From: Paludibacteraceae bacterium
Lineage (GTDB): Bacteria; Bacillota; Negativicutes; Veillonellales; Dialisteraceae
Length of the DNA: 44,096 bases
Direction of reading: 5' to 3'
Assembly (NCBI GenBank): GCA_963597965.1
Contig: CAVBRV010000001.1
Coordinates: forward strand, 1 to 44,096
The position numbers and the translations under genes are program-made. The notes below the pieces were generated by a model. The model made no database searches. It was not told where the DNA came from and worked only from the letters and a program-made list of their open reading frames with translations. Shown here piece by piece: positions 1-44,096 of this stretch. Each line of letters opens with the position of its first letter. Position 1 is the first letter of the stretch.

Positions 1-54
1 CACCAGTCACCAGTCACCAGTCACCAGTCACCAGTCACCAGTCACCAGTCACCA
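1..54. repeat. Heptamer tandem array (CACCAGT)n, cut by the window edge
   Basis: About 7.5 perfect CACCAGT units; same unit as the GTGACTG/CAGTCAC inverted arrays elsewhere in the window. Confidence 0.95.
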
Positions 55-65
55 AGTATTATATC

Positions 66-100
66 AAAAAAGACAGCCTCATTGCGAGACTGTCTTTTTT
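66..100. terminator. Rho-independent terminator downstream of pth, possibly bidirectional
   Basis: AAAAAAGACAG-N13-CTGTCTTTTTT stem-loop with A/T tails next to the pth stop. Confidence 0.8.
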
Positions 101-104
101 CGTA

Positions 105-677
105 TTATTTCTTCTTTTTCGGATTGAACGCATTCATGGCATGGTCTACGCCATGTTTCAGTGCATCTTCGATAGAATCAGCGGTGTGAATCTTGGCGTC
201 CTCAATGACCTGGATATCATCTCCATAGGGTCTTGTGAGTACGTGATCCACTACGGTATGTCCATCTTTGGGATGTCCTACACCGATGCGGAAGCGATTG
301 AACTGTTCGCTGCCCAAGTGAGCAATAAGGGATTTAATGCCATTGTGACCACCAGCGGAACCTTTTTTACGGATTCTAGTTTTTCCTGGTGGCAAATCCA
401 AATCATCACAGACGATATAAATATCATCCAAGTCGACTTTGAAATACTTGGCAATGGCCCCCACCGCTTCGCCGCTATTGTTCATGTAGGTCATAGGCTT
501 CACAAGAAGCACTTTTTCTCCATTCACAATGACCGTGGCGATTTCGGCTTTCATATCCTCTTTCCAGTTTGTCACTTTCCAGCGGTCCGCCAAGATGTCA
601 ATCACATCGAACCCCATATTATGGCGGGTATGTTCATATTCTTTTCCCGGATTTCCCAGGCCTGCTATGATTTTCAT
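105..677 (-). CDS. pth: Peptidyl-tRNA hydrolase
   Basis: GLGNPG..Y..TRHNxGF, KPxTYMNxSG and GSAGGHNGIKS motifs; ATG overlaps the prs stop. Confidence 0.97.
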   Translation of the reverse strand: MKIIAGLGNPGKEYEHTRHNMGFDVIDILADRWKVTNWKEDMKAEIATVIVNGEKVLLVKPMTYMNNSGEAVGAIAKYFKVDLDDIYIVCDDLDLPPGKTRIRKKGSAGGHNGIKSLIAHLGSEQFNRFRIGVGHPKDGHTVVDHVLTRPYGDDIQVIEDAKIHTADSIEDALKHGVDHAMNAFNPKKKK

Positions 678-1630
678 TATTTATCAAAGAGCTGGCTGAC
701 GGAAGCGTCGTGGAAAATACGGAGGATGGCTTCGCCCAGGAGCGGAGCAATGGAGAGGACAGTCAGTTTGTCCTGCATCTTTTCCTTCGGAATCGGCAGA
801 GAGTTGGTGACAATCAATTCTTTAATGTTGGAATTTTTGATTCTTTCTGTAGCCGGGTCAGTCAGGACTGGATGGCATACAGCGGCGTATACATTTCTAG
901 CGCCGTATTCAGCCAGTGCTTTTGCCCCTTCGCAAAGAGAACCAGCTGTATCGACGATATCGTCGACTACGAAGCAGTTTCTATCTTTGACATCGCCGAT
1001 GATATTCATAACTTTCGCAACGCCTGGTTCTGGACGGCGTTTTTCAATGATCGCAATCGGTGCGCCTACGCGGTCAGCCAGTTCTCTGGCTCTGGTGACA
1101 CCGCCAAGGTCTGGAGAAACGATGGTCAGGTTTTCCAGATTCTTGGATTTCACATAGTCTGCCAACAGGGAAGCAGACATCAGATGATCGACTGGTACAT
1201 TGAAGAAGCCCTGAATCTGTCCTGCATGAAGATCCATGGTGACAACGCGGGTAGCACCAGCCGCAGACATCAAATCTGCAACGAGTTTAGAAGAAATCGG
1301 TTCACGACCTCTTGTTTTACGATCCTGACGTGCGTAGCCATAGTAAGGAACTACGACGGTGATGTGACGAGCCGATGCTCTCTTCAGTGCATCAATCATG
1401 ATGAGCATTTCCATCAAATTGTCATTTACTGGTGCGCCGGTTGGCTGAATGATGAAACAATCTTTACCACGGACACTTTCATTGATCATAACCTGAATTT
1501 CGCCGTTGTTGAAACGACCACAGATTGCCTTGCCCAGCGGTACCCCGATATAGTCGGAAATTTCCTTTGCCAAAGCTGGGTGTGCGTTTCCTGTAAAAAT
1601 CTTCAATTTAGAAGTGTCTTCCATGTCCAT
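677..1630 (-). CDS. prs: Ribose-phosphate pyrophosphokinase
   Basis: PYYGYARQDRK, DLHAGQIQGFF and VVDDIVDTAGS motifs; start placed at ATG 1630 behind a GGAGAGG SD rather than at 1720. Confidence 0.96.
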   Translation of the reverse strand: MDMEDTSKLKIFTGNAHPALAKEISDYIGVPLGKAICGRFNNGEIQVMINESVRGKDCFIIQPTGAPVNDNLMEMLIMIDALKRASARHITVVVPYYGYARQDRKTRGREPISSKLVADLMSAAGATRVVTMDLHAGQIQGFFNVPVDHLMSASLLADYVKSKNLENLTIVSPDLGGVTRARELADRVGAPIAIIEKRRPEPGVAKVMNIIGDVKDRNCFVVDDIVDTAGSLCEGAKALAEYGARNVYAAVCHPVLTDPATERIKNSNIKELIVTNSLPIPKEKMQDKLTVLSIAPLLGEAILRIFHDASVSQLFDK

Positions 1631-1776
1631 TTTGCTGCCTCTCCCTTTCCTTTCAGATGAAAGTTTTGAAATATTATTTTTCTCCCCGCCGGTTACTCCC
1701 AAAACGCCGACTAGGGACACTCTGTGTATTATTATATACCAATCGATAGCGGTTTTGCCACACTTTTTTAGTTAGG

Positions 1777-1851
1777 AGTGACTGGTAGACTAGTGACTGG
1801 TGACTGGAAACCATGTTTTCCTAGTCAACAGTCACCAGTCACTAGTCACCA
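1777..1851. repeat. Inverted heptamer array pair (GTGACTR)n...(YAGTCAC)n
   Basis: GTGACTGGTAGACTAGTGACTGGTGACTGG, then GGAAAccatgTTTTCC, then CTAGTCAACAGTCACCAGTCACTAGTCACC; abuts the glmU stop. Confidence 0.9.
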
Positions 1852-1852
1852 A

Positions 1853-3232
1853 TTAATCCTTATATGTATCGTCCGTCACCCAATCTTCAATATTTTTCTG
1901 ACGAGCTCTAGCTACGGACAGAGCCTTAGATGGTACGTCTTTGGTGATGGTGGAACCAGCGGCGGTGAAGGCTCTTTCGCCGATATGAACCGGTGCCACC
2001 AGGTTGGTATTGCAACCGATGAAAGCGTGATCATCGATGGTGCAACGGTGTTTGTCTTTGCCATCGAAGTTGACTGTGACGGTACCGCAACCGAAATTGA
2101 CGTTTTTACCCAAATCAGAATCACCGCAGTAAATGAGGTGAGGTAGTTTGGTACCATCATCGACAGTAGAGTTCTTCACTTCTACGAAATTGCCAATCTT
2201 GATGTGGTCATGAAGCACTGTACCGGGGCGGAGATGAACGAATGGTCCGATTTCATTATAGTTTCCAATGGTGCATTCATGGGCGTAAACCCGGTTCAAA
2301 TGGGTAAATTCGCCGCACTTCACATCGGTGAGCTGGGTATCTGGGCCAATTTTGCAATTTTTGCCGACCACCGTATGTCCTTGGAGCATGGTGCCTGGAT
2401 AGAGGGTAGAATCCCGTCCCACTTCTACGTCCTGTTCCACATAGGTATGTTCCGGATCAATGATGCTAACCCCTGCTGCCATCAATTCTTCTGCCTTACG
2501 GAGACGAAGAATGCGGTCTGCCTGGGAGAGCTGGATACGGGAATTGACGCCCATGGTTTCGTCCGGGTCATCCGCTGCTACCGGAATGACTTTCTTGCCT
2601 GCTTTGATCATGATTTCAAACACATCGGTCAAGTAGTATTCGCCCTGGGCATTGTTGTTATTGATTTGTTTCAGCGCATCCATGAGCGCCCCTACCTGGA
2701 ATACGTAGGTGCCTGTATTGATTTCATGGACAGCCAGCTGTTCTGGGGTGCCATCTTTCTGTTCTACAATGGACGTCATATTTCCATTGGCATCCCGAAG
2801 CACGCGACCATAACCGAAAGGATTATCCAAAATAGCAGTCAAAACAGTGGCAACAGCTCCTTCTTTCTGGCAAGTTTCTGCCAGCTGGCTGATGGTTTCA
2901 CTGCGAAGAAGCGGCGTATCGCCGCAAATAACCAGCACATAGCCGTCTTTATCTTTTTCAAATTCTGGCACAGCCTGCATCACCGCATGACCGGTGCCCA
3001 GCTGTTGTTCCTGGTGGACAAAGGAAATATCCAAATCTCCCAGATAATCTCGTACCAGGTGTTCTTTGAAACCGGTGATAACCACACACTTTTCAAAGCC
3101 CCCCTTACGAACCACGTGGATGACCTGTTCCACCATAGGAACGCCGCACACCCGATGCAATACTTTCGGATAGGCAGACTTCATACGAGTCCCCTGCCCA
3201 GCGGCTAAAATCACAGCTGTTAATTCTGACAT
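1853..3232 (-). CDS. glmU: Bifunctional UDP-N-acetylglucosamine pyrophosphorylase / glucosamine-1-phosphate N-acetyltransferase
   Basis: ILAAGQGTRMKS..PKVLH, QLGTGHAV and GEYYLTD motifs, C-terminal hexapeptide repeats; GGAGG SD. Confidence 0.97.
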   Translation of the reverse strand: MSELTAVILAAGQGTRMKSAYPKVLHRVCGVPMVEQVIHVVRKGGFEKCVVITGFKEHLVRDYLGDLDISFVHQEQQLGTGHAVMQAVPEFEKDKDGYVLVICGDTPLLRSETISQLAETCQKEGAVATVLTAILDNPFGYGRVLRDANGNMTSIVEQKDGTPEQLAVHEINTGTYVFQVGALMDALKQINNNNAQGEYYLTDVFEIMIKAGKKVIPVAADDPDETMGVNSRIQLSQADRILRLRKAEELMAAGVSIIDPEHTYVEQDVEVGRDSTLYPGTMLQGHTVVGKNCKIGPDTQLTDVKCGEFTHLNRVYAHECTIGNYNEIGPFVHLRPGTVLHDHIKIGNFVEVKNSTVDDGTKLPHLIYCGDSDLGKNVNFGCGTVTVNFDGKDKHRCTIDDHAFIGCNTNLVAPVHIGERAFTAAGSTITKDVPSKALSVARARQKNIEDWVTDDTYKD

Positions 3233-3289
3233 ATTGTCCTCCTGTAACGTTACACTCTACGCGACATATTCTAATTTGAAATATGGAAA

Positions 3290-3362
3290 TGTTGTTGGTT
3301 GATAGTTGTTGGTTGTTTGAAAAATGATTTCCAAACAACTAACAACTATCAACTGGCAACTA
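3290..3362. repeat. Inverted heptamer array pair (GTTGTTR)n...(YAACAAC)n in the glmU leader
   Basis: GTTGTTGGTTGATAGTTGTTGGTTGTTTG...CAAACAACTAACAACTATCAACTGGCAAC. Confidence 0.85.
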
Positions 3363-3385
3363 TGATTTATGACTCCATAAAAAAC

Positions 3386-3414
3386 ATTGTAACAAAACCA
3401 TGGATAGATTTCAA
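3386..3414 (-). promoter_or_regulatory. Putative sigma-A promoter of glmU
   Basis: Minus strand TTGAAA-17bp-TACAAT with TG extension. Confidence 0.6.
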
Positions 3415-3432
3415 TGAATCGCAAGAGTTTTT

Positions 3433-3810
3433 TAGTGCGTAATGCGTAGTGCGTAATGATTGTAGCGGCACACAGAATTTGGAAGCACCGCCTTTTTCCA
3501 GAAGGTTGTGGTTCTGCTAATTTCGATAAATCATTCATAGAGAATATTTCGCTATAGTCCAAGGTTATTTATTGTGCCTTGCACATCTGAATCACTCAAT
3601 AAAAATACCGCCAGCAATAAGGTTATAAAAGGTTATGAAATAACCCTTTATAACCCTGTCGCTGGCGGTATTTTTGCAACTGCCTCAAAACAATTTGGCA
3701 AAATAATAACCTTTTTGATAAGCGAAATAGCAACCATGAATGCAAAAGGAATCAAAAAGGCGGTGCTTCCAAATTTGACGTGCCGTCACCACCATTTCTA
3801 ACTTCTCACT
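3433..3810. repeat. REPIN-like doublet: two inverted GTRG-hairpin units around a GGTTATAA/TTATAACC palindromic spacer, with heptamer tails
   Basis: GTAGCGGCACACAGAATTTGGAAGCACCGC (3462-3491) and GCGGTGCTTCCAAATTTGACGTGCCGTCAC (3760-3789); inner AAAAATACCGCCAGC...GCTGGCGGTATTTTT. Confidence 0.8.
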
Positions 3811-5104
3811 ATCTCACAAGGTACACATTCACCCGTTCCTTCGTTCCCCATTCATAGGCCTGCTGAAGGTTGTCAACCCCTACGTCGATAATCATGCCGT
3901 GAATGGCGCCACCGATGTCATCGCAAATGGCATACCCGTAGCCTTCGATGTAAACCACGCTCCCCAAGGGAATCACATTGGGATCCACCGCAGCGTGACC
4001 TTTCCCAGCAAAACCGCCCAACGCGGTACGACCATCTCCATTACCGTCCATGGGCGCATAGGCGGTGGATTTCATATGAAATATTTTCTTATAGCGACCA
4101 GTAAACCGCGGAGCGCTATCCAATCGGTCCCACACATCGCCGTCCGCAATGCCGGTACGAGACAAATTTTCTTCGGCCTGAAGCTGGCGCACCGCTTCCG
4201 CCGTGCCTTCTCCATAAACACCATCCACGGAACCCGGGTCATAGCCATGAAGAAGCAATTTATTTTGCAAGCGAATGACTTTATTTCCTGAATCCCCGAT
4301 CGATAAAGTATAATCTCCGGTACTATCGCCATAGGCCTGATTCAAAGTCACCAATGTTTTGTGATTCACTTCGCCAGTCACGCGGAGACCTTCATCTTTT
4401 TGGAAACTCCGCACCGCCATGGCGGTTTGGCCGCCATAAACGCCATCTGCCATACCGTCCAGGTAATCTAGTCGAATTAATTTCCGCTGAATCGATTCCA
4501 CTTCACTTCCTGTATCACCAATGCAAAAGGCACCAGGTTCATGAGCCGTAGTAGCTGCTGGGGTTTCTTCCTGAAAAGTAGAGTTGGAAATTTCTTCGCC
4601 CTCTACTTCCTTCAGTGCACTATAGGTCATTTCATCAATGGCCCCAGACACGGGGAAATCATGGGCCCGCTGAAAGGCTTCTACCGCATGGACCGTGTCT
4701 TGTCCATACACGCCATCCACATCGCCTTTGAGATAGCCGGCGGCCTGGAGTTTCTGCTGCATATCGGAAATCATACTTCCCCGATTTCCTTCCGCATAGA
4801 CTACACCGCCCCCATTGCGGTAGCCTTCGCCTTCGGCCTCTCGGATGGCTTCTTGCGTAGCATCATCTGCTTTCCCTGTGGCAGGAAGTCCTTTGGCCTT
4901 TTGAAATAACAAAACTGCTTCTTTTGTGGTGGACCCATAATCGCCGTCCACCGTACGTGCTAAGTATCCCGCAGCCACCAGAGAATTTTGCAAATCAGCC
5001 ACTTCGCTGCCACTCATTCCCGCTTGTAAGGTTTCTGCTGAAACACCCATGGACGCCATCAGCCACATAGCCATAGCGCAACTCCATGTATATAAGGCAC
5101 GCAT
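3809..5104 (-). CDS. Secreted protein with four PG_binding_1-type repeats and a C-terminal 3D domain (putative cell-wall lytic enzyme)
   Basis: Signal peptide; four repeats of LQ..L...GY....DGxYG..T..AV..FQ....L..TG; C-terminal STAY...AVDPNVIPLGS.VYIEGYG...DDIGGAI.G..IDV. Confidence 0.88.
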   Translation of the reverse strand: MRALYTWSCAMAMWLMASMGVSAETLQAGMSGSEVADLQNSLVAAGYLARTVDGDYGSTTKEAVLLFQKAKGLPATGKADDATQEAIREAEGEGYRNGGGVVYAEGNRGSMISDMQQKLQAAGYLKGDVDGVYGQDTVHAVEAFQRAHDFPVSGAIDEMTYSALKEVEGEEISNSTFQEETPAATTAHEPGAFCIGDTGSEVESIQRKLIRLDYLDGMADGVYGGQTAMAVRSFQKDEGLRVTGEVNHKTLVTLNQAYGDSTGDYTLSIGDSGNKVIRLQNKLLLHGYDPGSVDGVYGEGTAEAVRQLQAEENLSRTGIADGDVWDRLDSAPRFTGRYKKIFHMKSTAYAPMDGNGDGRTALGGFAGKGHAAVDPNVIPLGSVVYIEGYGYAICDDIGGAIHGMIIDVGVDNLQQAYEWGTKERVNVYLVR

Positions 5105-5169
5105 TCTTTCACCTCCAATAAACTTGCATCTATCAATAATTCATCACATGCAGTAAAAAAGATAGCCGC

Positions 5170-5227
5170 AGTGACCGGTAGACTAGTGACTGGAATATTT
5201 TTTCCTAGTCACCAGTCACTAGTCATC
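5170..5227. repeat. Inverted heptamer array pair (GTGACTR family)
   Basis: GTGACCGGTAGACTAGTGACTGG...CTAGTCACCAGTCACTAGTCA. Confidence 0.85.
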
Positions 5228-5290
5228 AACCTACACCACCTCATTTTCATAACGTATGAGGTGCATAACATTTCTAACTGCAATCTCCAT

Positions 5291-5319
5291 ATTTTACCAT
5301 TTCTTGTCAATTTTGTAAA
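5291..5319 (-). promoter_or_regulatory. Putative sigma-A promoter of the PG-binding/3D gene
   Basis: Minus strand TTTACA-17bp-TAAAAT with TG extension. Confidence 0.55.
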
Positions 5320-5842
5320 AAATAGTGGAAAACCCTTCTTCTTTTGCCTACAAGTGAAACGGTGTTTCTCCGTGCTTTCTTCCTTGTAATTCTCGATATT
5401 TTCGGTGGGAAATCGGTTGTGAAAAAGGAATGTTTTTCTCTTTTTCCTGCTCGAATTTTTGAGAAAGTGGAGAATGGTGTTCTAAGGGTTCTCGCTCCAT
5501 TGAAAATCTTGCGATTTCCTCGGAGCGAGAACCCATGCCGCTAGAGAAAATGCAAGATATTCCCCTTGTTCGCTACTCTGGACGCCTATTTTTCTTGTCT
5601 CACATCGCATTCAAAACTTCAGTGCGAGCTATCCCCTGCTTTATTCGCTTCGCTCATACGCTATCCCCTTCCAAAGGAAGGGGATTTTTGGGTGCCTAGA
5701 ACCTTTAGAACCCTTAAATGCACGTTCCATCTCCATGTCCCTCCAACCACTCCACCGCTACAGAACCTTTGCATACACGTTCCGCCTCCCTGTTCCTCCA
5801 GCCACTCCACCGCTACAGCTCCCATCTATCCAAAAATTTTAT

Positions 5843-5871
5843 TTGTCCATGCAGCATAAAAATAATATAAT
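5843..5871 (+). promoter_or_regulatory. Putative sigma-A promoter of the symporter gene
   Basis: TTGTCC-17bp-TATAAT. Confidence 0.6.
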
Positions 5872-5931
5872 AGGTAAGATATATGCATGATTTGTATTTC
5901 AAATATTTTCTACAATGAGGAGGAGGTCTTT

Positions 5932-7344
5932 ATGGAAACGCTTAACGCTGTTGTTTCCTCCATCAATGATTTTCTATGGTCATCGGTGATTATTATTTTA
6001 TTGGTCGGTGCGGGATTTTATTTCACCATTCGCACCAAAGGCGTGCAGGTCCGGTATTTCAAACGCATGCTGCAACTCATTGGTCATACAGCCGGCACGA
6101 AAACGAAGGGAAATGAAATTTCTCCTTTCCAAGCATTCTGTGTCAGTACCGCCTCTCGTGTAGGCGTAGGAAATATCGCGGGTATCGCTATCGCCATCAC
6201 TTCTGGCGGCCCTGGGGCTATTTTCTGGATGTGGTTCATTGCTGTCATCGGTTCCGCTACGGGTTTTGTAGAAAGTACATTGGCTCAGATTTACAAAGTG
6301 CCTCGGGAAGATGGAAATGGATTCCGCGGCGGCCCAGCTTATTATTTGAAAAATGGTCTCGGTCATGGACTTTGGGCAGCACTCTTTGCGATTTTGATTT
6401 CTGTCACCTATGGTATGATTTATAATTCCGTCCAGTCCAATACCATTGCACTGGCTCTCTCCAGTTCTTTGGGATTTGACCGCATGATCGTCGGTGGCGT
6501 GGTCACTGTGCTGGCTATGCTGGTCATTTGCGGCGGCATGGGCCGTATCGCTCGTGTCACCGAATGGATGGTACCTGTGATGGCAGGCATTTACATCCTG
6601 ATTACTCTTGGCATCATGATTTTCAATATCACAGAAATGCCTCGCGTTTTCGGTATCATTCTCCGCGATGCCTTTGATTTTCAGGCTGTCTTCGGTGGTG
6701 GCATGGGCGCGGCCGTCCTCACTGGTTTCAAACGGGGCCTCTTCTCCAATGAAGCCGGCGAAGGTTCTGTACCAAATGCAGCCGCTACAGCGGACGCTAG
6801 CCATCCCGCTGTGCAGGGGCTCATCCAGGCATTCGGCGTGTATGTAGATACTCTCTTCATTTGCTCCGCTTCTGCTTTCATCGTTCTTCTGACCGGCGAT
6901 TATGCGTCCACTGGTCTCACCGGTATCGAACTCATTCAGTGGGACTTGGCGCAATACTTCGGACCTATGGCACCAAAAGCCGTTTCCATTCTGATTTTCC
7001 TCTTCGCTTTCACTTCCCTCATCGGAAATTACTATTATGGCGAAATCAATATCGGTCATCTGTCTACTAAGAAATGGCCGCTAAACCTGTTCCGCGTGTG
7101 CATTGCTATCATGATTTTCTGGGGCTCCATGGCCGACCTTCCTGTCGTTTGGAACCTGGCTGACCTCTTCATGGCTTTCATGGTTCTCACCAACGTGACC
7201 GCTATCCTCATTCTTTTCCCACAAGCCAATGCGGCTTTGAAAGATTACGAGAAACAGCTCAAAGAAGGAATCAAAGTCCCAACGTTCCACAGAAAAGTTC
7301 TCCCCCATCTGAAAGGGGTGTATTGGTGGGATGATAAAGAATAA
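5932..7344 (+). CDS. Alanine/glycine:cation symporter (AGCS family)
   Basis: RVGVGNIAGIAIAI..GGPGAIFWMW, GGPAYY and KRGLFSNEAG.GS motifs, many TM segments; start at ATG 5932 after GAGGAGGAGG. Confidence 0.93.
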   Translation: METLNAVVSSINDFLWSSVIIILLVGAGFYFTIRTKGVQVRYFKRMLQLIGHTAGTKTKGNEISPFQAFCVSTASRVGVGNIAGIAIAITSGGPGAIFWMWFIAVIGSATGFVESTLAQIYKVPREDGNGFRGGPAYYLKNGLGHGLWAALFAILISVTYGMIYNSVQSNTIALALSSSLGFDRMIVGGVVTVLAMLVICGGMGRIARVTEWMVPVMAGIYILITLGIMIFNITEMPRVFGIILRDAFDFQAVFGGGMGAAVLTGFKRGLFSNEAGEGSVPNAAATADASHPAVQGLIQAFGVYVDTLFICSASAFIVLLTGDYASTGLTGIELIQWDLAQYFGPMAPKAVSILIFLFAFTSLIGNYYYGEINIGHLSTKKWPLNLFRVCIAIMIFWGSMADLPVVWNLADLFMAFMVLTNVTAILILFPQANAALKDYEKQLKEGIKVPTFHRKVLPHLKGVYWWDDKE

Positions 7345-7531
7345 TTATAAGGGCTGATAGTTAAGTTACTTAGGTTGCTAAGGGTTCTCAGGTTATACTC
7401 TTTGATTCCGATTGTCTCACAATCAGATGATTTGGAAATCTGAAAAGGTTATGATTCTGCCATGTCCTATGTTCTCACATAGAGAACATTCGGATAGTGG
7501 ATGGGGGGTATAAAGGTTATGTAAGGTTATA

Positions 7532-7569
7532 AAAAGCCGCAAGCATGATGTTTCGTGCTTGCGGCTTTT
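7532..7569. terminator. Probable bidirectional terminator between the converging symporter gene and his operon
   Basis: AAAAGCCGCAAGCA-loop-TGCTTGCGGCTTTT. Confidence 0.75.
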
Positions 7570-7618
7570 GTGTTTTGGTAGCTAGTGACTAGTGACTGGT
7601 GACTAGGGATTAGGAAAT

Positions 7619-7811
7619 CGTCATTTCGACCGATGGAATTCGTGCAAGAAGAGTTCTATGGTGCTAAGCGACTATGTTGGACAAAAGTGGAGAAATCTTG
7701 AGGTTCTATCGAAAACAGCATTATCCTCACAAGATTTCTCCACTTCTGTCTAACATGGTCGCAGAAAAGCAATAGATTCATCCAGCACAAATCCCGTCGG
7801 TCGAAATGACG
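7619..7811. repeat. ~193-bp palindromic element, family B, bracketed by GTGACTR arrays (7577-7614, 7836-7862)
   Basis: CGTCATTTCGACCGATGG...GTGGAGAAATCTTG-spacer-CAAGATTTCTCCAC...CGGTCGAAATGACG. Confidence 0.9.
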
Positions 7812-7942
7812 GATTGACATAGCTATCTGTATTCCCAGTCACTAGTCACCAGTCACTAGTCGCCCAAATAAAAGAGCGGCGCTTCCAAATTTGACGCGCC
7901 GCACCTGAATTACTCATTATTCATTACTCATTCATCATTGCA

Positions 7943-8620
7943 TTAGAAGATTTTATCCTGATGTCCTACTTTTTTCTTATTTCCTTTTTTCTCATCCCGG
8001 TCTTCCAATTTTTTCATGATGTCATACAAATCGACCCCGGAATTTTCCCACATCACCATGAGATGATAGAGCAGGTCACAGGATTCGTCGATGATTTCTT
8101 CTTTATCCTGGTGCTGGTCGGCGATGATGACTTCTGAGGCCTCTTCGCCGATTTTCTTATCAATCTTATTCTTGCCTTCCGACTGGAGATAATTGGTATA
8201 AGACTTTTCCTGTGGATGGAGACGGCGATCTTTGATTTCTTCAAAGAGGATGTGAAGGATGGACAGATTGCCTTCTGCCTCTTTATTCTCCCAGCCCACA
8301 AGGCTACGGTAGAAACAGGAGCGATTGTTCGTATGGCAAGCCGGGCCGTCTGGAATGACCTGTACCACCAGGGTGTCAGCATCGCAATCCACGTAAATTC
8401 GTTTCACATGCTGGAAATGGGCCGACTCTTCGCCCTTGTGCCAGAGCTTCTGCCGGCTACGACTGAAGAACCATGTCTCTCCACTATCGATTGTCTTCTG
8501 CAGAGATTCTGCATTCATGTAAGCCACCATAAGCACTTCCCCACTCCGTGCATCCTGCACTACGGCAGGGATGAGGCCGCTTGTATCGTATTTGATGTCG
8601 TTTATGTTTACAAGTTCCAT
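7943..8620 (-). CDS. hisIE: Bifunctional phosphoribosyl-AMP cyclohydrolase / phosphoribosyl-ATP pyrophosphatase
   Basis: [25 protein letters not shown] and [14 protein letters not shown] motifs. Confidence 0.96.
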
Positions 8621-8640
8621 ATTGATTTCCCTCTCTTAAA

Positions 8641-8846
8641 AGTTGGCAGTTAGCAGTTAGCAGTTGGCAGAAAAGTCAGCCCTACCGCTAAAGAAACACT
8701 ATAAGAAAAATTGGTAGTGCTGAGAAATTTCTCCACTTCTGTCTCTCATAGCTCTGAATTACACCACAGATCCATCAAGCACAAATCCCATCGGTCGAAA
8801 TGACGGATAGGGCTACTGTCTACTGCTAACGGCAAACTGCCTACTA
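8641..8846. repeat. Half family-B element (8724-8805) bracketed by (GCAGTTR)n...(YAACTGC)n arrays, inside the his operon
   Basis: ATTTCTCCAC...GCACAAATCCCATCGGTCGAAATGACG between AGTTGGCAGTTAGCAGTTAGCAG and CTACTGCTAACGGCAAACTGCC. Confidence 0.85.
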
Positions 8847-8848
8847 AA

Positions 8849-9604
8849 TTATCTTCTCACTGCCACTCCATGTTCCGTCAAATATTTCTTGAGTTCCGGA
8901 ATCCCAATTTCCCCGAAATGAAAGACAGAAGCCGCAAGGGCGGCATCGGCACCGGCCTGAAAAGCGTGGAGGAAATCTTCCATTTTCCCTGCGCCGCCGG
9001 AGGCAATGACGGGGATGGAGAGTGTGTCAGACAGGACTCGCATGAGTTCTAGGTCATAGCCCTGTTTTTCGCCATCCGAATCCATAGAGTTCATGCAAAT
9101 TTCTCCGGCACCCAGTTCCATGCCTTTTCTGGCCCATTCGACTACGGAAATACCCGTATTCTTGCGGCCCCCTTCGACGTACACATCCCAGCCACCTTGG
9201 CTGTTTCGTTTCCCGTCGATGGAAAGAACCACGCACTGGTTGCCGAAACGCTCCGCACTTTCCTGAATGATTTCGGGATGCATGACGGCTGCCGAATTGA
9301 CAGAGACCTTATCTGCCCCAGCGAGAAGCATGGTGCGGAAATCATCAGCTTTCCGAATCCCGCCGCCTACAGTAAAGGGGATGGTCAGCTCTTCCGCAAT
9401 GGCTTTCACCGTCTCTACGAACGTCTCCCGCCCTTCGTGGGTGGCGGTGATGTCGTAGAACACCAATTCATCGGCGCCGGAATCAGAATAATATTTTCCT
9501 AAAGTCACCGGATCATCCACGTCTTGTAAATTTTGAAACTGCTTTCCCTTCACCACCCGGCCATGATTCACGTCTAAGCAGGGAATGATTCGTTTCGCAA
9601 GCAT
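8849..9604 (-). CDS. hisF: Imidazole glycerol phosphate synthase, cyclase subunit
   Basis: [30 protein letters not shown] and IASGGAG motifs. Confidence 0.97.
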
Positions 9605-9632
9605 ATCATCTCACCGTTTCCCTTTCGTTTTT

Positions 9633-9960
9633 AAGTGCGTAATGCGAAGTGCGTAATGAAGGTGGCGGCGCATCAATTCATATAGCACCGCAATACCCCT
9701 TTTTTATAAAGGTTATTATTCTGCTGCTTTCTATAGCAAACACAGTGATATAAAACGCTACTATCAAGGTTAATAAGGTTATAACGGGTTATGCAATTTC
9801 GCTAGTTTCATAACCCTCAATAACCCTTTTAACCTTTTGATAAACTGTATTTTCTCTTTGTAAAACATAACAATTCCGTAGAATAATACCCTGATATATC
9901 TCGCGGCGCTTCCAAATTTGACGCGCCGCACCTTCATTTCTAACTTCTCACTTCTAACTA
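9633..9960. repeat. REPIN-like doublet between hisA and hisF
   Basis: GTGGCGGCGCATCAATTCATATAGCACCGC (9662-9691) and GCGGCGCTTCCAAATTTGACGCGCCGCAC (9903-9931), GGTTATAA/ATAACC core, heptamer tails. Confidence 0.8.
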
Positions 9961-10674
9961 CTCACTGATTTTCACAATTTCCTCCATCGTCACTTTCCCC
10001 TCATACAGCGCTTTTCCTGTAATGGCACCATAGACGCCCATGTCCGACAGTTTTTGTAAGTCCGCCGCACAGGAAACGCCGCCGGAAGCGATGAGGTGAA
10101 TGCCGGGGAGGGCGTTCAAGGTTTCCATCATTTCAAAGTTCGGTCCAGAGAGCATGCCATCTCGGCTAATGTCGGTATACACGATAGTGGTCACTCCATT
10201 TTCCAAAAGGGTTTTCACAAAGGGCAGAACTTTCTGTTTGCTGCCATCCACCCAGCCATGGGTGGCCACCGTGTCTCCGTGAGCGTCCACGGAAACGGCG
10301 ATATGGTCGGCCCCATATTTCTTGGCTGCCTGGATAGCAAAGTAGGGATACGCCACTGCTTTGGAACCGATGATGACCCGGTCCACCCCATTTTCCAAAT
10401 GGGTTTTGATGGCTTCTTCGGTGCGAATACCACCGCCCACTTCGATAGGAATAGAAAGGACTTGGCACATTTTGTGAATGATTTCTGTATTCTGTCCACC
10501 TCCCTTGAACGCGCCGTCCAAGTCCACCACGTGCAGATATTTGGCTCCTTCTTTTTCCCACTTCAGCGCCATTTCCACCGGGTCATCCCCATAGACCGTG
10601 ATGTCCTGAAGTTTCCCCTGTTTGAGGCGGACGCAGTGCCCGTCTTCTATATCGATTGCTGGAAATATTTTCAT
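9958..10674 (-). CDS. hisA: ProFAR isomerase
   Basis: MKIFPAIDI..G.CVRL.QG, LHVVDLDGA and YTDISRDG motifs; ATG overlaps the hisH TGA. Confidence 0.96.
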   Translation of the reverse strand: MKIFPAIDIEDGHCVRLKQGKLQDITVYGDDPVEMALKWEKEGAKYLHVVDLDGAFKGGGQNTEIIHKMCQVLSIPIEVGGGIRTEEAIKTHLENGVDRVIIGSKAVAYPYFAIQAAKKYGADHIAVSVDAHGDTVATHGWVDGSKQKVLPFVKTLLENGVTTIVYTDISRDGMLSGPNFEMMETLNALPGIHLIASGGVSCAADLQKLSDMGVYGAITGKALYEGKVTMEEIVKISE

Positions 10675-11869: not shown

Positions 11870-11873
11870 AGGA

Positions 11874-12326: not shown

Positions 12327-12390
12327 ATTACGACCTCACAAATTCAGATATGTAGTGGGTGGTTATTCATTCGCTGATTTCTGCTGATGT

Positions 12391-12504: not shown

Positions 12505-12533
12505 CACCGCTAGCGAGAGTTATCAACTGCCGC

Positions 12534-30785: not shown

Positions 30786-30794
30786 TGAACCCTC

Positions 30795-32694: not shown

Positions 32695-32853
32695 ATAGTG
32701 AGGAGTGAGGAATTAGGAGTTAGGAGTGAAGGTAGGCCTGACACAATTCATATAGTCAGGCCAAATATTATAAAAAATATAATTAATGGCGCCGCTTCCA
32801 AATTTTGTGCGGCGCTACCACCACTCCTCACTCCTCACTCCTAATTCCTCACT
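32695..32853. repeat. Short REPIN-like doublet with (GAGGAGT)n tails between metI and metQ
   Basis: GTAGGCCTGACACAATTCATATAGTCAGGCC, AT-rich spacer, GGCGCCGCTTCCAAATTTTGTGCGGCGCTAC. Confidence 0.82.
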
Positions 32854-32926
32854 ATCAAAAAGGGTTTCAACCAGCCCTGTATTCACACAGGTTCTGGCAA
32901 TTTATAAAAGAAGGGAAGTTTTAACT

Positions 32927-33760: not shown

Positions 33761-33808
33761 TATGTTAGTCAGCAGTTAGCTGCTCCCAGTAGGCAGATTT
33801 ACTGCATG

Positions 33809-33842
33809 GAAAAAGACCGCTTGAGAATAGCGGTCTTTTTTT
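33809..33842. terminator. Terminator after metQ
   Basis: AAAAAGACCGCT-loop-AGCGGTCTTTTTT. Confidence 0.82.
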
Positions 33843-34024
33843 GTTGGTTCTGGGGTTCTGGAGGTGGTGATTTGGTTTGAGGCAACTGGTATGCATGCCG
33901 CTGTCAGAGGATTCTGGGGGTGATGAAATTGGATAGAGGCATTTGGCATATATACAGCTCTCATAGGGTTCTAAAGGTTCTGAGGGTTCTGAGGGTTCTA
34001 AGGAAATATGCCTCTTCCCTACTC

Positions 34025-34216
34025 CGTCATTTCGACCGATGGGATTTGTGCTGAATGGCTCTATCGCTTTTCTGCGACTATGTGAGACAGAAGTGGAGAA
34101 ATCTTGTGGAACTAACGTTGTTTCCGATAGTGTCTCAAGATTTCTCCACTTTTGTCCAACATAGTCGCTTAGCCCTAAAAAGTCGTCAAGCACTAATCCC
34201 ATCGGTCGAAATGACG
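34025..34216. repeat. Family-B ~192-bp palindromic element
   Basis: Same conserved arms as the other B copies. Confidence 0.9.
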
Positions 34217-34295
34217 ATAATAAAAATACCGCTATCCCCACTGCCTACCAATGCTATTAAGTTAAGCGAAATATACGATGATTTCTGCTGCTGTA

Positions 34296-34434
34296 AAGGT
34301 TACTCAGGTTTCTCAGGATGCTAAGGTCTCTCAGGTTCCTCGAATGAGCTAATGACGTCAGCGACTATTGGCACATTCGAGAAACCTGAGTACCCTTAGA
34401 ACCCTTAGAACCCTTTGTACCTTGAGCAACCTGT
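34296..34434. repeat. Family-E hairpin element
   Basis: CTCGAATGAGC...GGCACATTCGAGAAA core with 9-mer arms ending GAGCAACCTGT. Confidence 0.85.
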
Positions 34435-34635
34435 AACCGCAAGCGTTAGCATGCCTACTGACTCAAATCCTTAACTTAACAGCATTGCACTGCCTACTGA
34501 GAACTGCCAACCGCCTACTACTCCCCCAATCCCTAGCTCCTAATCCCTAATCCCCATAAAAAATGCGGCGCTTCCAAATTCTTATGCGCCGCCACCACCA
34601 CTCCTCACTCCTCATTCCTAACTCCTCACTACAAG

Positions 34636-36660: not shown

Positions 36661-37190
36661 GAAAGGAGCACCTCGCTTAATTGAAATCTTTTTGAAATTC
36701 TATAAAACAATCTATGCAATATGTTAGATTTTTGGATAAATTTTTTGTTGCTAGTTGATGGTTCTTTGTTGTTAGACATTCCCAACAACAAACAATCAAC
36801 AACCAGCAACATGAATGACAGAGAATATCTCAAAAAAACAGGCCACACTCACAAGAGTGATCTACTTTTTTGAAATATTTTCTATTTTTTTGTGACTGGT
36901 GACTAGTGACTAGTAGCTAGGGATTAGTAGCTAGGGATTAGGGATTAGGGATTAGGAAACACACATCTCCCTATTTCCTTTTGTATAACCTGTCCAAAGG
37001 ACGTAACCTTTTATAACCCTTCATAACCTTTTGGCACTACGTAGAGCATCGCAAAAGCCTCTACCCATATACCGCTACAAAAACTGCCTACTGCTAACTA
37101 CAAACTGCCTACTAATCAAAGATTCATATGGTGTTACCGGAGAGGTTGCCCTCCCCGGTTTTTCCATTATGAGTTTCTGAAGTTCAGAAA

Positions 37191-39182: not shown

Positions 39183-39242
39183 CAAATTACGCCTCCAATT
39201 TATACACCTATATACACAAAGATATATGAACGATTTAGCTCG

Positions 39243-39487
39243 GAGTTAGAAGTTACAAGTGAGAAGTGATGGTAGTTGCGTCACGATGGAGTGAATAACA
39301 TTGGCATTCATTCCGCTTGTGCAGCCCCCTCTTGTGTTCTCCCCCAAAGGGGGAGATAAATAAGGTATAAACCTATTTACGCATCAAATGAAATAGCGCC
39401 GCATAAAATTTAAAATATTGGCTTTGCTTTATGAATTGTGCAAAGCCTACCACCATTCCTCATTTCTCATTCCTAATTCCTCATTGC
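39243..39487. repeat. Composite repeat in the fabH-fabD gap: heptamer tails, a family-D half, a REP remnant and an intact GTAG-hairpin
   Basis: CCCCCTCTTGTGTTCTCCCCCAAAGGGGGAGA (~39325-39357); GCATCAAATGAAATAGCGCCGC; GGCTTTGC-N12-GCAAAGCCTAC (39420-39450). Confidence 0.7.
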
Positions 39488-40515: not shown

Positions 40516-40584
40516 GGTAGCTCGTGACTGGTGACTAGTGACTAGTAAATATTTCCAGTCACTAGTCACCAGTCACAAGTCACC
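40516..40584. repeat. Inverted heptamer pair (GTGACTR family) in the plsX-fabH gap
   Basis: TGGTAGCTCGTGACTGGTGACTAGTGACTAG...CCAGTCACTAGTCACCAGTCACAAGTCACC; left arm identical to that at 15628. Confidence 0.9.
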
Positions 40585-40589
40585 ATCAA

Positions 40590-41606
40590 CTATTCGGTTT
40601 TCATCTGCTTCAACGTATCCATCACAATCTGATCCAGATGTTCCCGGCATACGTCTTCTGCCATATGGATGGCATTCTTGATAGCCTTTGCTTTGGAGGC
40701 GCCGTGACAGATGAGAAGCCCGCCCTTGATACCAAGCAACGGCGCACCGCCGTATTCGGCGTAATCCAAACGCTTCACCATGTATTTCTTCAAAGCCGGT
40801 TTTAAAAGAAGGCCTCCGATTTTTGCCAGAATGCCTCCCTTGTACACCGCATCTTTCAAGAGAGAAGCCACCAACTTGCCGGCCCCTTCTCCAAATTTCA
40901 ATACCACATTTCCTGTAAACCCATCGGTGACAATCACGTCAAATTCTCCGGTCATCACGTCGCGGCCTTCTGCATTGCCTGCGAAAGGAATGACAGTCTG
41001 CTGACGAAGAATTTCATTGGCTTCCGCTACCAGAGGGCTGCCTTTGGTCACTTCTTCCCCGATATTGAGAAGTCCGATTTTCGGAGAGGAAATGCCTGCC
41101 ACTTTCGTGGCATAGATATAGCCCAGCAGCGCATTTTGCACGTAAGTTTCCACCTTCGGCTGGGCACTGGCCCCCGAATCAATGAGGTAAGTATATCCCC
41201 CTTTTTGATTGGGAATGGGAGTCAGAATGGCGGGACGTTCGATGCCTTTGATACGACCGATACCCAAAAGACCAGCAGTCACAGCGGCGCCTGTGGAACC
41301 AGGCGCTACCAACGCACCACATTCACCCTGTTTCACCAGGCGAGCTCCCACAGAAACGGACGCATCCTTTTTCTTGCGGTAAGCCATGCCCGGATGTTCA
41401 CCCATTTCGATGACTTCCGATGCATGATGGATTTCAATCAAAGGATTCTGATCTTCCCCATTCTTTTCCAGAATTGAACGAATCTGTGCTTCATCCCCTA
41501 CCAGAACGACGGGAATTTTCCATTCTCTCACCGCCTGAATGGCGCCCAATACAATTTCCAGCGGCGCAAAATCTCCACCCATAGCATCGACAGCTATTTT
41601 TTTCAT
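40590..41606 (-). CDS. plsX: Phosphate acyltransferase
   Basis: IAVDAMGGDFAP, IERPA, LLNIGEE..KG, DGFTGNVVLK.GEG and YGGAPLLG motifs. Confidence 0.97.
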   Translation of the reverse strand: MKKIAVDAMGGDFAPLEIVLGAIQAVREWKIPVVLVGDEAQIRSILEKNGEDQNPLIEIHHASEVIEMGEHPGMAYRKKKDASVSVGARLVKQGECGALVAPGSTGAAVTAGLLGIGRIKGIERPAILTPIPNQKGGYTYLIDSGASAQPKVETYVQNALLGYIYATKVAGISSPKIGLLNIGEEVTKGSPLVAEANEILRQQTVIPFAGNAEGRDVMTGEFDVIVTDGFTGNVVLKFGEGAGKLVASLLKDAVYKGGILAKIGGLLLKPALKKYMVKRLDYAEYGGAPLLGIKGGLLICHGASKAKAIKNAIHMAEDVCREHLDQIVMDTLKQMKTE

Positions 41607-42181: not shown

Positions 42182-42407
42182 TACTATATCACAAGTCGTC
42201 AAGTTCTGCATCTAGGGAAATGGGAAACTTTTCGCAAATGGAAATATATCATTTGAATGATACCGATAATTTCACTGTTGTTAGTTGTTTGTTGTTGGTT
42301 CTTGGGGGAACTAACAACAAACAACTAACAACTAACAACCATGCCACCATTCCATCTATGCCCCTCCCAAATCGCCCTATTTCACGAGCAATTTTAATCA
42401 CTAACTT

Positions 42408-42424
42408 TTATCACCAGGTGATAT
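42408..42424. promoter_or_regulatory. 17-bp palindrome, candidate FapR operator 2
   Basis: TTATCACCAGGTGATAT, preceded like operator 1 by ACTT. Confidence 0.55.
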
Positions 42425-42482
42425 TTAAAACGGTATAAATTGTTTGTTTAAGAAAAATTCCAACACTTTTTCAAAATTATCA

Positions 42483-42511
42483 TTGACTTATTTCATGACT
42501 TAGCATAAACT
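42483..42511 (+). promoter_or_regulatory. Putative sigma-A promoter of the FabX/FabK-like gene
   Basis: TTGACT-17bp-TAAACT. Confidence 0.55.
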
Positions 42512-42578
42512 ACAGTAAATACAGGATATATGACATTTGAAAATTTGTCAAACGATATTTTGAAAGTGTATTATTAAA

Positions 42579-42748
42579 GTAGGCAGTTAGCCGTAAGCAG
42601 TTGGCAGTGTACCGCCAGTGCATCACTCTCAATGTTATTGGGTGGCTGGTAGACTAGTGACTGGTGACTGGTGACTAGGAAAAAGCGTAGCCCAGTCACT
42701 AGTCACTAGTCACCATATACTGCCAACCGCTAACTGCTAACTGCCTAC
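42579..42748. repeat. Nested inverted heptamer pairs: a GCAGTTR pair enclosing a GTGACTR pair
   Basis: GTAGGCAGTTAGCCGTAAGCAGTTGGCAG...[GACTAGTGACTGGTGACTGG...CCAGTCACTAGTCACTAGTC]...CTGCCAACCGCTAACTGCTAACTGCCTAC. Confidence 0.88.
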
Positions 42749-42766
42749 TTACCAAGGAGAACAATT

Positions 42767-43822
42767 ATGAACTTACCGAAATTACACATTGGAAATCTGA
42801 CCGCTGACGTACCGATCGTACAGGGCGGCATGGGCATCGGCGTCAGCCTGTCCGGCCTCGCCAGTGCGGTGGCAAATGAAGGCGGCGTGGGCGTCATTTC
42901 TGCTGCCAACATCGGCTTCAATGAACCCGATTTCCGTACCCATACCATCGACGCCAACCTCAGGGCCATCAAAGAACAACTTCGCATTGCCAAAGAAAAA
43001 GCCAAACGCGGCATCATCGGCATGAACATTATGTGGAAAGGCCAAAACTACGAAGACTATGCTCGCTGCGCTGCCGAAAACGGGGCAGACATCATTTTCT
43101 CCGGTGCCGGCCTCCCCGCCGACCTCCCGGCTTGCGTCGAAGGAACCGATACGAAAATCGCCCCCATCGTAGGCTCCCCGAAAGCAGCCCGCGTCATTTT
43201 GAAACTTTGGGATCGCCACCATCATCGCACCGCCGATATGGTAGTCATCGAAGGACCAAAAGCCGGCGGACACCTGGGATATACCAGAGAACAAGTCAAA
43301 GAACACGAACACGACGGCTACGAAAAAGAAATCAGCGAAATTCTAGCGGTGGTCAAAGAATTTGAAGAGAAATTCCAGAAAAAAATTCCCGTTGTCTTCG
43401 GCGGTGGTGTATTTGACAAAAAAGACATCCAGCACTACCTCTCCCTGGGACTGTCGGGTGTACAAATGGCAACCCGTTTCGTAGCGACCAAAGAATGTGA
43501 CGCTTCGGACGCTTTCAAAAATATGTACGTCAACGCCAAGAAAGAAGACGTCACCATCGTACAGAGCCCCGTCCATATGCCGGGCCGCGCCCTCTTGAAC
43601 CCATTCACCTGCGCCATCCGCCAGCATCGCATCCCGCCGATGAATTGCTTCCACTGCCTGAAAACCTGCGACCCCCGCACCACCCCCTACTGCATCACCA
43701 TGGCCCTCATTCGCGCTGTCAAAGGCGATGTAGACCACGGCCTGGTCTTCTGCGGTGCCAATGCATGGAAAATCAATAAAATTGTGTCCGTCCATGATTT
43801 GATTCATGAATTGACGGATTGA
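42767..43822 (+). CDS. Nitronate-monooxygenase-family flavoprotein, FabX/FabK-like, with a C-terminal Cys cluster
   Basis: PIVQGGMGIGVS, EGPKAGGHLG, GVQMATRF and CFHCLKTC......YCI motifs; AAGGAG SD; divergent from the fapR operon. Confidence 0.85.
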   Translation: MNLPKLHIGNLTADVPIVQGGMGIGVSLSGLASAVANEGGVGVISAANIGFNEPDFRTHTIDANLRAIKEQLRIAKEKAKRGIIGMNIMWKGQNYEDYARCAAENGADIIFSGAGLPADLPACVEGTDTKIAPIVGSPKAARVILKLWDRHHHRTADMVVIEGPKAGGHLGYTREQVKEHEHDGYEKEISEILAVVKEFEEKFQKKIPVVFGGGVFDKKDIQHYLSLGLSGVQMATRFVATKECDASDAFKNMYVNAKKEDVTIVQSPVHMPGRALLNPFTCAIRQHRIPPMNCFHCLKTCDPRTTPYCITMALIRAVKGDVDHGLVFCGANAWKINKIVSVHDLIHELTD

Positions 43823-43831
43823 TGGATATGC

Positions 43832-43872
43832 AAAAAGCCTGAACAAAGTGAAATTGCTTTGTTCAGGCTTTT
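43832..43872 (+). terminator. Terminator after the FabX/FabK-like gene
   Basis: AAAAAGCCTGAACAAAG-loop-CTTTGTTCAGGCTTTTT. Confidence 0.85.
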
Positions 43873-44001
43873 TGGTTGTTGGTTGTTGGTTGTTGGTTGT
43901 TGGTTAGAGTCCAACAACTAATAAGTCAAACTTCCCACCCGTAAAATGATGATTCATTTCGATACGATCAAGGAAATATGAACTTATGGTAGCTCCGAAG
44001 T

Positions 44002-44096
44002 CGTCATTTCGACCGGTCGTATTTGTACAAAGTGATGATACAGAAATAAATAGATTTGTGTCCCTGAGTGGAGAAATCTCTTCAGCACTAGCGGTA
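44002..44096. repeat. Family-B arm (variant subfamily) at the window edge
   Basis: Reverse complement of ~19618-19697 with only two differences by my alignment. Confidence 0.88.

Follow-up and report, generated by a model that had tools for sequence, protein, structure and literature searches.

What occupies the space between the genes of a 44,096-nucleotide (nt) stretch that carries his, met and fab genes, and how did it come to be there? The stretch, referred to below as the window, is positions 1 to 44,096 of contig CAVBRV010000001.1 (C1) in assembly GCA_963597965.1, deposited as Paludibacteraceae bacterium and placed by GTDB in the Dialisteraceae (Negativicutes). Its genome is called G000 here; other G-numbers denote relatives among the 38 genomes of the genus that were compared, and C-numbers denote G000 contigs. 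Nearly every gap in the window holds hairpin-armed repeats that recur throughout the genome, and particular classes of these repeats flank five four-helix-bundle genes, a GIY-YIG gene and two DUF559 genes located elsewhere in it. We think it probable that the system works along the lines of REPINs (doublets of repetitive extragenic palindromic, REP, sequences) and their REP-associated tyrosine transposases (RAYTs), but with three helpers that are not transposases, each reading its own arm and spreading empty copies in trans. The gaps would then hold gene-less copies of three kinds of hairpin-armed gene cassette.

Extent and order of the repeats

The initial annotation, made from the letters of the window, put gene coverage at about 71% and described nearly all gaps as mosaics of about six recurring modules. 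With a purpose-made hexamer gene caller (1777 genes in G000), the coding share comes to 67.3% for the whole 2.72-Mb assembly (304 contigs, 93% complete) and to 70.5% for the window. Elements are present in 24 of the 25 window gaps of at least 60 nt, including all eight that had been named, and in 1027 of 1115 such gaps across G000. Of 890,936 non-coding bases in the genome, 381,740 (43%) fall under 14-mers that recur at least six times, vs 0.4% of coding bases. Non-coding arrays number 2870 at period 7 and 515 at period 9, vs 5-18 at periods 4, 5, 6 and 8; the three commonest arm classes have 1022, 842 and 669 copies, where a Markov null gives 14, 53 and 23. Profiles of the families called B, D and E find 460, 383 and 357 matches at E<0.01, none of them in coding DNA, and family G contributes 104 tokens, of which 24 are distinct full copies. 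Class tokens come from de novo arrays and from profiles built on window copies; these miss a D subtype as well as Nb's long outer arms, so that all element counts are lower bounds.

Could such a density be a product of assembly or binning? The 304 contigs, with 330 of their 608 ends lying within repeats (58 within G specifically), invite the question, but the near-closed relative G015 (two contigs) carries 228 period-7 arrays in the 800 kb sampled, so the repeats are not an assembly artefact. Copies have diverged, profile matches to B, D, E and G all avoid coding DNA, and orthologous elements are shared by independent assemblies, which refutes the idea and leaves it a negligible probability. 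The phenomenon is real, genome-wide rather than confined to the window, and shared inside one clade of the genus. Against Rfam, the only match in the window is an S-adenosylmethionine (SAM) riboswitch, and no curated RNA family fits the repeats; promoter and terminator scans of window positions 1-20000 gave no excess (31 vs 28.1 and 26 vs 19.3).

De novo clustering raises the number of recurring modules from six to about ten classes: heptamer arms Ha, Hb, Hc, Hd and He, 9/10-nt arms Na and Nb, and families B, D, E and G, with E being the subterminal hairpin of Hd arms and no separate element. Where two arms of one class share a gap, the G-rich one leads, with its complement opposite, and the two form a bracket (Hc 252/266, Hb 257/262, Ha 183/187, Hd 154/160, Na 126/128). 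B units pair head-to-head in 107 of 109 two-unit gaps, and D units tail-to-tail in 35 of 45. The stretch 24770-25250, described initially as a heptamer bracket around a D element and a "half B", does contain heptamer arms, a D pair and one B unit; the supposed half is a B monomer, and a "whole B" is the head-to-head dimer. That stretch has a predicted folding energy of -221 kcal/mol vs -128 +/- 4 for shuffles. On their G-rich strand the commonest D units show, by eye, a pyrimidine stem, a purine stem and a mirror-image third strand.

The elements behave as intact units. Complete pairs of different classes stand in 1007 relations to one another: 628 serial, 369 nested (52 of these being E within Hd, i.e. 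a single element) and 10 crossing, where random interleaving of the classes would give 297 +/- 18 crossings. Nesting is directional: B is inner 66 times and outer once, D inner 26 times and never outer, and Ha surrounds Hb 36 times while the reverse occurs once. The idea that gaps are built of nested modules holds for part of the genome only, since 697 of the 1115 gaps hold at least two families and 330 hold one; the hisZ-hisG, hisG-hisD, hisC-GNAT, metI-metQ and plsX-fabH gaps, all initially listed as nested, each contain one simple element. Preferential insertion of elements into one another likewise applies to some classes, with B (79/126 inside a bracket vs 51 expected from free length) and D (79/117 vs 56) clearly favouring the interior and Nb doing so weakly (31/43 vs 25), but not to Hb (67/186 vs 65) or G (10/21 vs 9). 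B is never the sole occupant of a gap (0/164). Inner elements are more central than a uniform placement would give (45% of 137 under 0.25 asymmetry vs 25%), partly because untokenised flanks pair with each other.

Genes framed by the repeat classes

The initial annotation correctly found no transposase or nuclease gene in the window: of eight unclear proteins compared with Pfam, seven belong to unrelated families and one has no match, the remaining 28 being named from sequence and context only. It overlooked the four-helix-bundle genes to which the prevailing brackets, of 7 and 9 nt, belong and for whose proteins no catalytic site is known. G000 has five genes of the TIGR02436/PF05635 (23S_rRNA_IVP) family, each framed by a different arm class: Hc on C76, Hb and Ha for the two genes on C109, Hd/E on C175, and Na on C190. 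In a scan of G000 for open reading frames (ORFs) enclosed by arm pairs, the C175 helix-bundle gene was the only one recovered. Several helix-bundle ORFs run into their own right arm and acquire repeat-encoded C-terminal tails. Cassettes of both the helix-bundle and the DUF559 kind are clustered in operons that we judged, from sequence, to be capsule-like and pilus-like (C109, C104/C190, and in relatives too).

Across the genus there are 85 helix-bundle matches in 29 of the 38 genomes, and 76 were analysed after nine partial or broken ones were left out. A 7/9-nt array lies beside 66 of the 76, on both sides of 44 and with one shared unit at 36. A quick maximum-likelihood tree built on 118 columns, in which many forks stay open, contains a deep clade of 18 with Hd-type arms, a clade of seven with 9-nt arms and a clade of seven with Hc-type arms. 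Among the 66 rows whose arm is labelled, the arm unit is shared by 31/31 protein pairs of at least 95% identity, by 0/1680 pairs below 45%, and by 0/70 pairs of paralogues within one genome. Three of the genes occupy fixed loci, with the same flanking genes in 12 genomes (C175 type), five (C190 type) and four, while some other loci are unique, so that helpers are not all fixed; at the C175-type locus the arms stand in G042 with no ORF between them, and in G016 a decayed remnant is left. In relatives, arrays were sampled over 2-57 kb per genome, mostly in his and fab regions. The nine genomes with no helix-bundle match had four arrays, of low complexity, in 175 kb, and the 29 with a gene ranged from 0 to 11.8 arrays per 10 kb. 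With G000 left out, 31 of 182 arrays matched arms of their own genome, vs 14 +/- 6 after permutation.

GIY-YIG and DUF559 genes had both been named at the outset as genes that might be flanked by the repeats, and both are. On C80 the GIY-YIG gene is surrounded on both sides by an array of B units and encodes a single-domain protein of 94 aa with Y6, Y17 and E64; SsnA has the same length, and these are its mutated residues (PMC11893778). On length, residues and flanks the C80 protein is probably of the Ssn type. Homologues occur in 12 of the 38 genomes, with CGTC-type repeats (by eye) on at least one side at 14 of 15 loci, and the B type of G000 is abundant only in G010 and G042, whose GIY-YIG proteins are the closest. 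A second stand-alone GIY-YIG gene, on C20, was considered as a helper and set aside, its sequence looking like the housekeeping UPF0213 type.

Two DUF559 genes of G000 lie in arrays of D units. The family is present in 28 of the 38 genomes, its best named match by identity is from Dialister succinatiphilus (56%), which fits the Negativicutes, and catalytic-type residues D, E, D, G and H are invariant in 18/18. Full flanks are available for 50 of 79 distant DUF559 loci collected; a strong G+C hairpin stands no more than 300 nt away at 49 of the 50, and on both sides at 31, vs 10/50 and 0 in distal controls. The D profile of the window matches only 6 of the 79; the layout is common, therefore, and the sequence is not.

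RAYT and insertion-sequence (IS) transposases had been suggested as flanked genes as well. In G000 (93% complete) PF01797 (Y1/RAYT), GxxExxY (PF13366), DDE_Tnp_1 (PF01609) and DDE_3 (PF13358) are all unmatched. An account in which every family is a classical MITE (a miniature transposable element with inverted repeats), moved by DDE or HUH transposases that the assembly lacks, could draw on that incompleteness and on the many contig ends in repeats, and it is true for G only. G is an ordinary TA-duplicating MITE: it has terminal inverted repeats, filled G002 against empty G011/G019 shows a clean TA duplication, the flanks of 24 full copies were checked, and with 58 contig ends in G a collapsed autonomous IS is possible. 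At one orthologous fab site (G011, G051, G015 and G001 vs G048) G decays by internal deletions of varied length between short repeats. For Ha, Hb, Hc, Hd, Na and B, however, the ends carry genome-wide no clear excess of direct repeats over shuffled pairing (a small excess for Ha only), and the gene-bearing copies carry non-transposase genes, which makes this account of all the families very improbable.

The structure model of the helix-bundle protein (pLDDT 97) matches two uncharacterised family members, XCC0516 (Z 19.0, rmsd 0.8, 103 aligned) and BT0352 (Z 16.9), and then bAvd of diversity-generating retroelements (DGRs), alone (Z 14.8, rmsd 1.6) or in complex with the DGR reverse transcriptase (Z 14.6, rmsd 1.4), with 102 residues aligned. 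Q, R, S, N, E and E are invariant in 23/23 helix-bundle proteins. One might suppose from this likeness that brackets are retroposed RNA hairpins, an Avd-like ring binding the folded transcript and recruiting a reverse transcriptase in favour of transcribed 3' ends; G000 does have one DGR-like enzyme in a prophage-like region, and the arms favour stop codons (see below). Yet the helix-bundle protein is 10-12% identical to bAvd, likeness of fold is no evidence of function, and the reverse transcriptase was found in only 16 of the 38 genomes and not in array-rich G010, G051, G001 and G043 (three of them fragmented). We regard retroposition as distinctly improbable. The DGR-like gene (C53:1492-4992) lies beside a holin-like gene and a tail-like ORF, with no Avd gene among ORFs of at least 100 aa.

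Filled and empty sites, stop codons and the proposed mechanism

Non-autonomous hairpin families should leave filled and empty orthologous sites, and such sites are found. The hisZ-hisG gap is 94 nt in G000 and at most 2 nt in 19/19 relatives; an Hc insert in the hisZ coding tail shortens HisZ by two residues and uncouples hisZ from hisG. In relatives, hisC and hisB overlap in 18 of 20, the hisF-hisIE gap is 0-10 nt in 9 of 17, and the hisA-hisF gap, which holds different families, varies in length between 1 and 667 nt. The plsX stop carries Hc in G000 and another heptamer class, in identical register, in G010 and G042, and in relatives the 22 native bases that begin exactly past the fabH stop give way to a heptamer composite. 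Of 135 gaps orthologous between G000 and G010, 90 are filled in both, with the class set identical in 15 and disjoint in 21, and of 147 shared with G015, 46 are filled only in G000; relatives' own classes are under-counted in both figures, which use the G000 vocabulary. Gaps are thus far from invariant, being empty in sister species or occupied by other classes.

The main bias of the brackets, missed initially, is toward stop codons. A heptamer left arm lies within -30 to +8 nt of the stop in 697 of 1734 genes (40%), and where the stop is inside the arm it is TAG in 226 of 375 vs 193 of 1041 arm-free genes. In convergent gaps, which are free of ribosome-binding constraint, an arm lies within 8 nt of the stop for Ha (68% of 31), Hc (79% of 42) and Hd (59% of 61), and less often for Hb (25% of 40), Na (8% of 13) and Nb (0/14). 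Stop proximity roughly tracks the number of reading frames closed per arm (Hc 2.5, Hd 2.1, Ha 1.7, Hb 1.1, Na 0.9), with Nb (1.65) exceptional. C-terminal length equals that of the G015 orthologue in 131/188 genes with no arm, 42/56 with an arm just past the stop and 22/61 with the stop in the arm (85/109, 40/48 and 27/48 against G010), from which it follows that inserts land both directly after native stops and in coding tails. The bias may come from targeting or from selection.

Selection by the host is the core of another reading, in which the brackets are mRNA hairpins kept for 3' protection or RNase III processing after stops, spreading and changing class by slippage and gene conversion, with the helix-bundle genes as passengers. 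The strength of the bias, even in the convergent gaps of Ha, Hc and Hd, would suit it, as would the gaps that stay occupied between G000 and G010 while their content changes, the solo arms, which are mostly the stop-proximal ones, the loose coupling of gene and repeat, and the cutting by RNase III of the Coxiella intervening-sequence stem (PMC4990558). It leaves new sites unexplained, though, and many sister species have no bracket at the same junctions. C-termini altered by inserts stand against it as well, and host-wide homogenisation would not predict that paralogues of one genome never share an arm unit. On balance we think it unlikely.

The reading we prefer, mobilisation in trans by helpers, could run as follows. 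Each cassette protein would recognise only its own arm sequence and spread empty copies in trans, as RAYTs do for REPINs. GIY-YIG and DUF559 proteins may nick single-stranded DNA beside their own hairpin, after which host repair would copy the nicked unit into a new site. The helix-bundle protein, by its fold a candidate Avd-like ring, may bind the periodic arms, either as a sequence-specific adaptor or, given its invariant residues, as an unrecognised enzyme; whatever role it has is the weakest step of the model. Heptamer brackets would land or survive at gene 3' ends, as we propose, because their arms carry stops in several frames and spare ribosome-binding sites, and the loops of brackets may serve as landing sites for B and D, giving rise to nested mosaics. 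G falls outside the scheme.

Several points weigh against this reading. The evidence is a comparison between species, from which we infer movement, and kin genomes are not independent, so that statistical support is overstated; linkage alone accounts for arms tracking the protein tree. Nine of the 29 genomes with a helix-bundle gene have no array in the DNA sampled, G017 with eight matches has none in 30 kb, and own-arm matches are 2/50 arrays in G042 and 0/11 in G024. No cognate gene was found in G000 for He, Nb or G, while G016 has three B copies and no Ssn match. The published degenerate SRM pattern has 14 unrelated matches in G000, none a B unit among those printed. The structure search with the helix-bundle model returned no enzyme above the helical background, an unlisted family being possible, and the published account of SsnA describes cleavage, not mobilisation (PMC11893778).

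The window and comparison with known systems

Table 1. Repeat elements in the window (coordinates in nt from its first letter)
Position	Elements and setting
1-55	solo Hc right arm
1770-1853	empty Hc heptamer bracket, glmU-prs gap
3290-3363	empty Hb heptamer bracket
3433-3811	Hd bracket and subterminal E hairpins around Nb (9/10-nt) pair
5181-5716	Hc bracket, solo Ha arm, Na (9-nt) bracket around D-subtype hairpin missed by D profile
7582-7861	Hc bracket around head-to-head B dimer (7619-7698, 7732-7811)
7876-7933	solo E+Hd arm at hisIE stop codon
8641-8845	Ha bracket around B monomer (8727-8805), hisF-hisIE gap
9633-9966	Hd/E bracket around Nb pair, hisA-hisF gap; arm overlaps hisA stop
12392-12503	Na 9-nt bracket after hisC
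14910-14970	Hc bracket, hisG-hisD gap
15634-15690	Hc bracket within hisZ tail
16924-17114	Na bracket and solo Hc arm, upstream of hisZ
17917-18223	G MITE (about 166 nt), then solo Ha and Hc arms
19343-19977	solo Na arm, B unit (19620-19697) facing minimal short-loop B-like unit at 19540, D unit (19767-19802), E+Hd arm, Ha arm
20552-21580	Hd arm, tail-to-tail D pair (20820-21045), G MITE (21093-21259) inside an Hc arm, Ha arm, B dimer (21322-21514), Nb arm
23001-23482	Hc bracket at lysA stop, then Hd/E bracket around Nb
24419-24693	Na bracket and solo Ha arm
24770-25252	mixed heptamer bracket (He left arm 24770-24787, Hc right arm 25233-25252) around D pair (24835-25059) and B monomer (25118-25195)
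25356-25481	Na bracket
26455-26718	Hb arm(s) and Nb arm
27857-28353	Hb arm, B dimer (27924-28117), Hb bracket, Ha arm, Hc bracket
30101-30934	Hc bracket, Nb and E+Hd arms, Hb bracket; intervening SAM riboswitch (30686-30786) foreign to system
32696-32858	Hd/E bracket, metI-metQ gap
33763-34632	Ha arm between metQ stop and its terminator; Na arm, B dimer (34025-34216), Na bracket, Ha/Hc arms, E+Hd arm
36744-37113	Hb bracket, Hc arms, Nb and Ha arms around conserved native hairpins, acpP-fabF gap
39242-39485	Hd bracket around D unit, fabH-fabD gap
40521-40593	Hc bracket at plsX stop
42275-42749	Hb bracket; Ha bracket around an Hc bracket
43872-44079	Hb arm and B monomer (44002-44079), contig end

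Some further features lie among these elements. The SAM riboswitch upstream of metNIQ is intact between two repeat blocks, and three tandem paralogous genes for amino-acid-binding proteins (23534-27753) have a different mosaic between each. An ORF of 132 aa at 17509-17907, flanked by repeat blocks, has no Pfam match. A GNAT acetyltransferase gene stands between hisC and hisB (11874-12326) in G000 only, and the his regions of 20 relatives lack it. In the acpP-fabF gap, a palindrome armed with A/T runs (36830-36890) is kept in all genus genomes shown; it has no Rfam match, sits downstream of a terminator-like hairpin of acpP and may be an operator or an RNA element. Elsewhere in G000, a 16-nt palindrome has 92 exact copies and 188 within one mismatch on 29 contigs (292 kb; e.g. 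C10, C27, C37, C78, C45, C86, C132), and the richest of these, C10, encodes ParB. We take the palindrome to be parS-like, in which case its expansion is unusually large; there are 41 copies in 40 kb of G010:C2 and only two in the 800 kb of G015 sampled.

Are these systems already known? A full-text search, which covered few subscription papers, turned up no paper tying helix-bundle genes to dispersed heptamer elements or DUF559 to palindromic repeats, and none on such repeats in Dialister/Negativicutes. The heptamer/helix-bundle and D/DUF559 systems thus appear undescribed in print; B is a variant of the published Ssn kind, and what is new is the three systems together, their class specificity, the nesting order and the stop-codon bias.

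The helix-bundle genes share protein family and fold, and an ORF in or beside an inverted-repeat stem, with ORF-bearing 23S rRNA intervening sequences (S23p/23S_rRNA_IVP; PMC4990558; structures 2gsc, 2rld). Heptamer repeats were noted in the Coxiella sequence, in an account that calls the origin of the intervening sequence unclear (PMC4990558). In contrast to these, all five G000 genes lie between protein genes in mRNA operons, none in a 23S rRNA helix, and the five paralogues, each with an arm class of its own, are accompanied by gene-less copies in the thousands at stop codons. A bolder proposal, which we advance tentatively, is that the 23S-IVP helix-bundle proteins are sequence-specific mobilisers that work without a transposase, each paralogue reading its own periodic arm of 7 or 9 nt, and deliver gene-less copies to stop codons; with Ssn and DUF559 they would make up a within-genome community in which three or more unrelated helper systems nest in a set order. 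If so, heptamer repeats in bacteria would have an explanation, and so would the ORFs that rRNA intervening sequences carry. The pairings found here offer a testable function for the S23p/IVP family and candidate partner proteins for repeats that have spread in an unexplained way (CGTC-tagged REPs, heptamer arrays and BoxC-like triplex repeats). Five helix-bundle proteins and five arms in one genome make a ready matrix of cognate and non-cognate pairs. The elements also shape the genome structure of this lineage, with its large non-coding share, arms at the stops of 40% of genes, rewritten C-termini and uncoupled operon junctions. DGR Avd (4dwl) shares the fold, but here the helix-bundle genes (C76, C109, C175, C190) lie away from the only reverse transcriptase (C53).

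Family D may resemble CIR/RIME repeats. It has, by eye, the class II layout of the BoxC/PIT/TM(ECO) triplex repeats and, like them, is always intergenic (Holder et al. 2015, PMC4666352). Its stem sequence differs from TM(ECO), and its second loop is longer or a hairpin (by eye); it has about 400 copies, vs 23 in E. coli K-12, and a flanked DUF559 gene, and that account found no link of TM repeats to mobile elements (PMC4666352). Family G is like TA-duplicating MITEs in its length of about 166 nt, its terminal inverted repeats and its TA duplication, with the autonomous partner not found in the assembly. We take it to be of the IS630/Tc1-mariner type. Cyanobacterial STRR sequences are tandem heptamers in inverted pairs between genes, as here, and we know of no helper gene for them in print.

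Family B and its gene are like Ssn with its NTS/SRM repeats (Chenal et al. 2025, PMC11893778) and like the CGTC-tagged REPs (Di Nocera et al. 2013, PMC3733652), in that a nuclease is flanked by a CGTC-tagged repeat and head-to-head dimers dominate. B departs from SRM in its bulged stem and 55-60-nt inner segment, and the SRM pattern does not match it. The main text of PMC11893778 mentions neither "Firmicutes" nor "Bacillota", although its supplements list SRM genomes and may include this genus, and "Firmicutes" is likewise absent from the main text of PMC3733652, according to which CGTC repeats seem to have no dedicated transposase.

With REPs, REPINs and bacterial interspersed mosaic elements and their RAYTs (the REPtron), the repeats described here share hundreds of extragenic hairpins, often head-to-head dimers and mosaics, and a single-copy, vertically kept helper flanked by its own repeat, with one repeat type per helper (PMC3733652). 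They differ in that no Y1/HUH gene was found in G000, the helpers being helix-bundle, GIY-YIG and DUF559 proteins, and in that the arms are periodic 7/9-nt arrays whose load reaches about 43% of non-coding DNA. The system probably works like the REP/REPIN mosaics, yet it is not a RAYT system.

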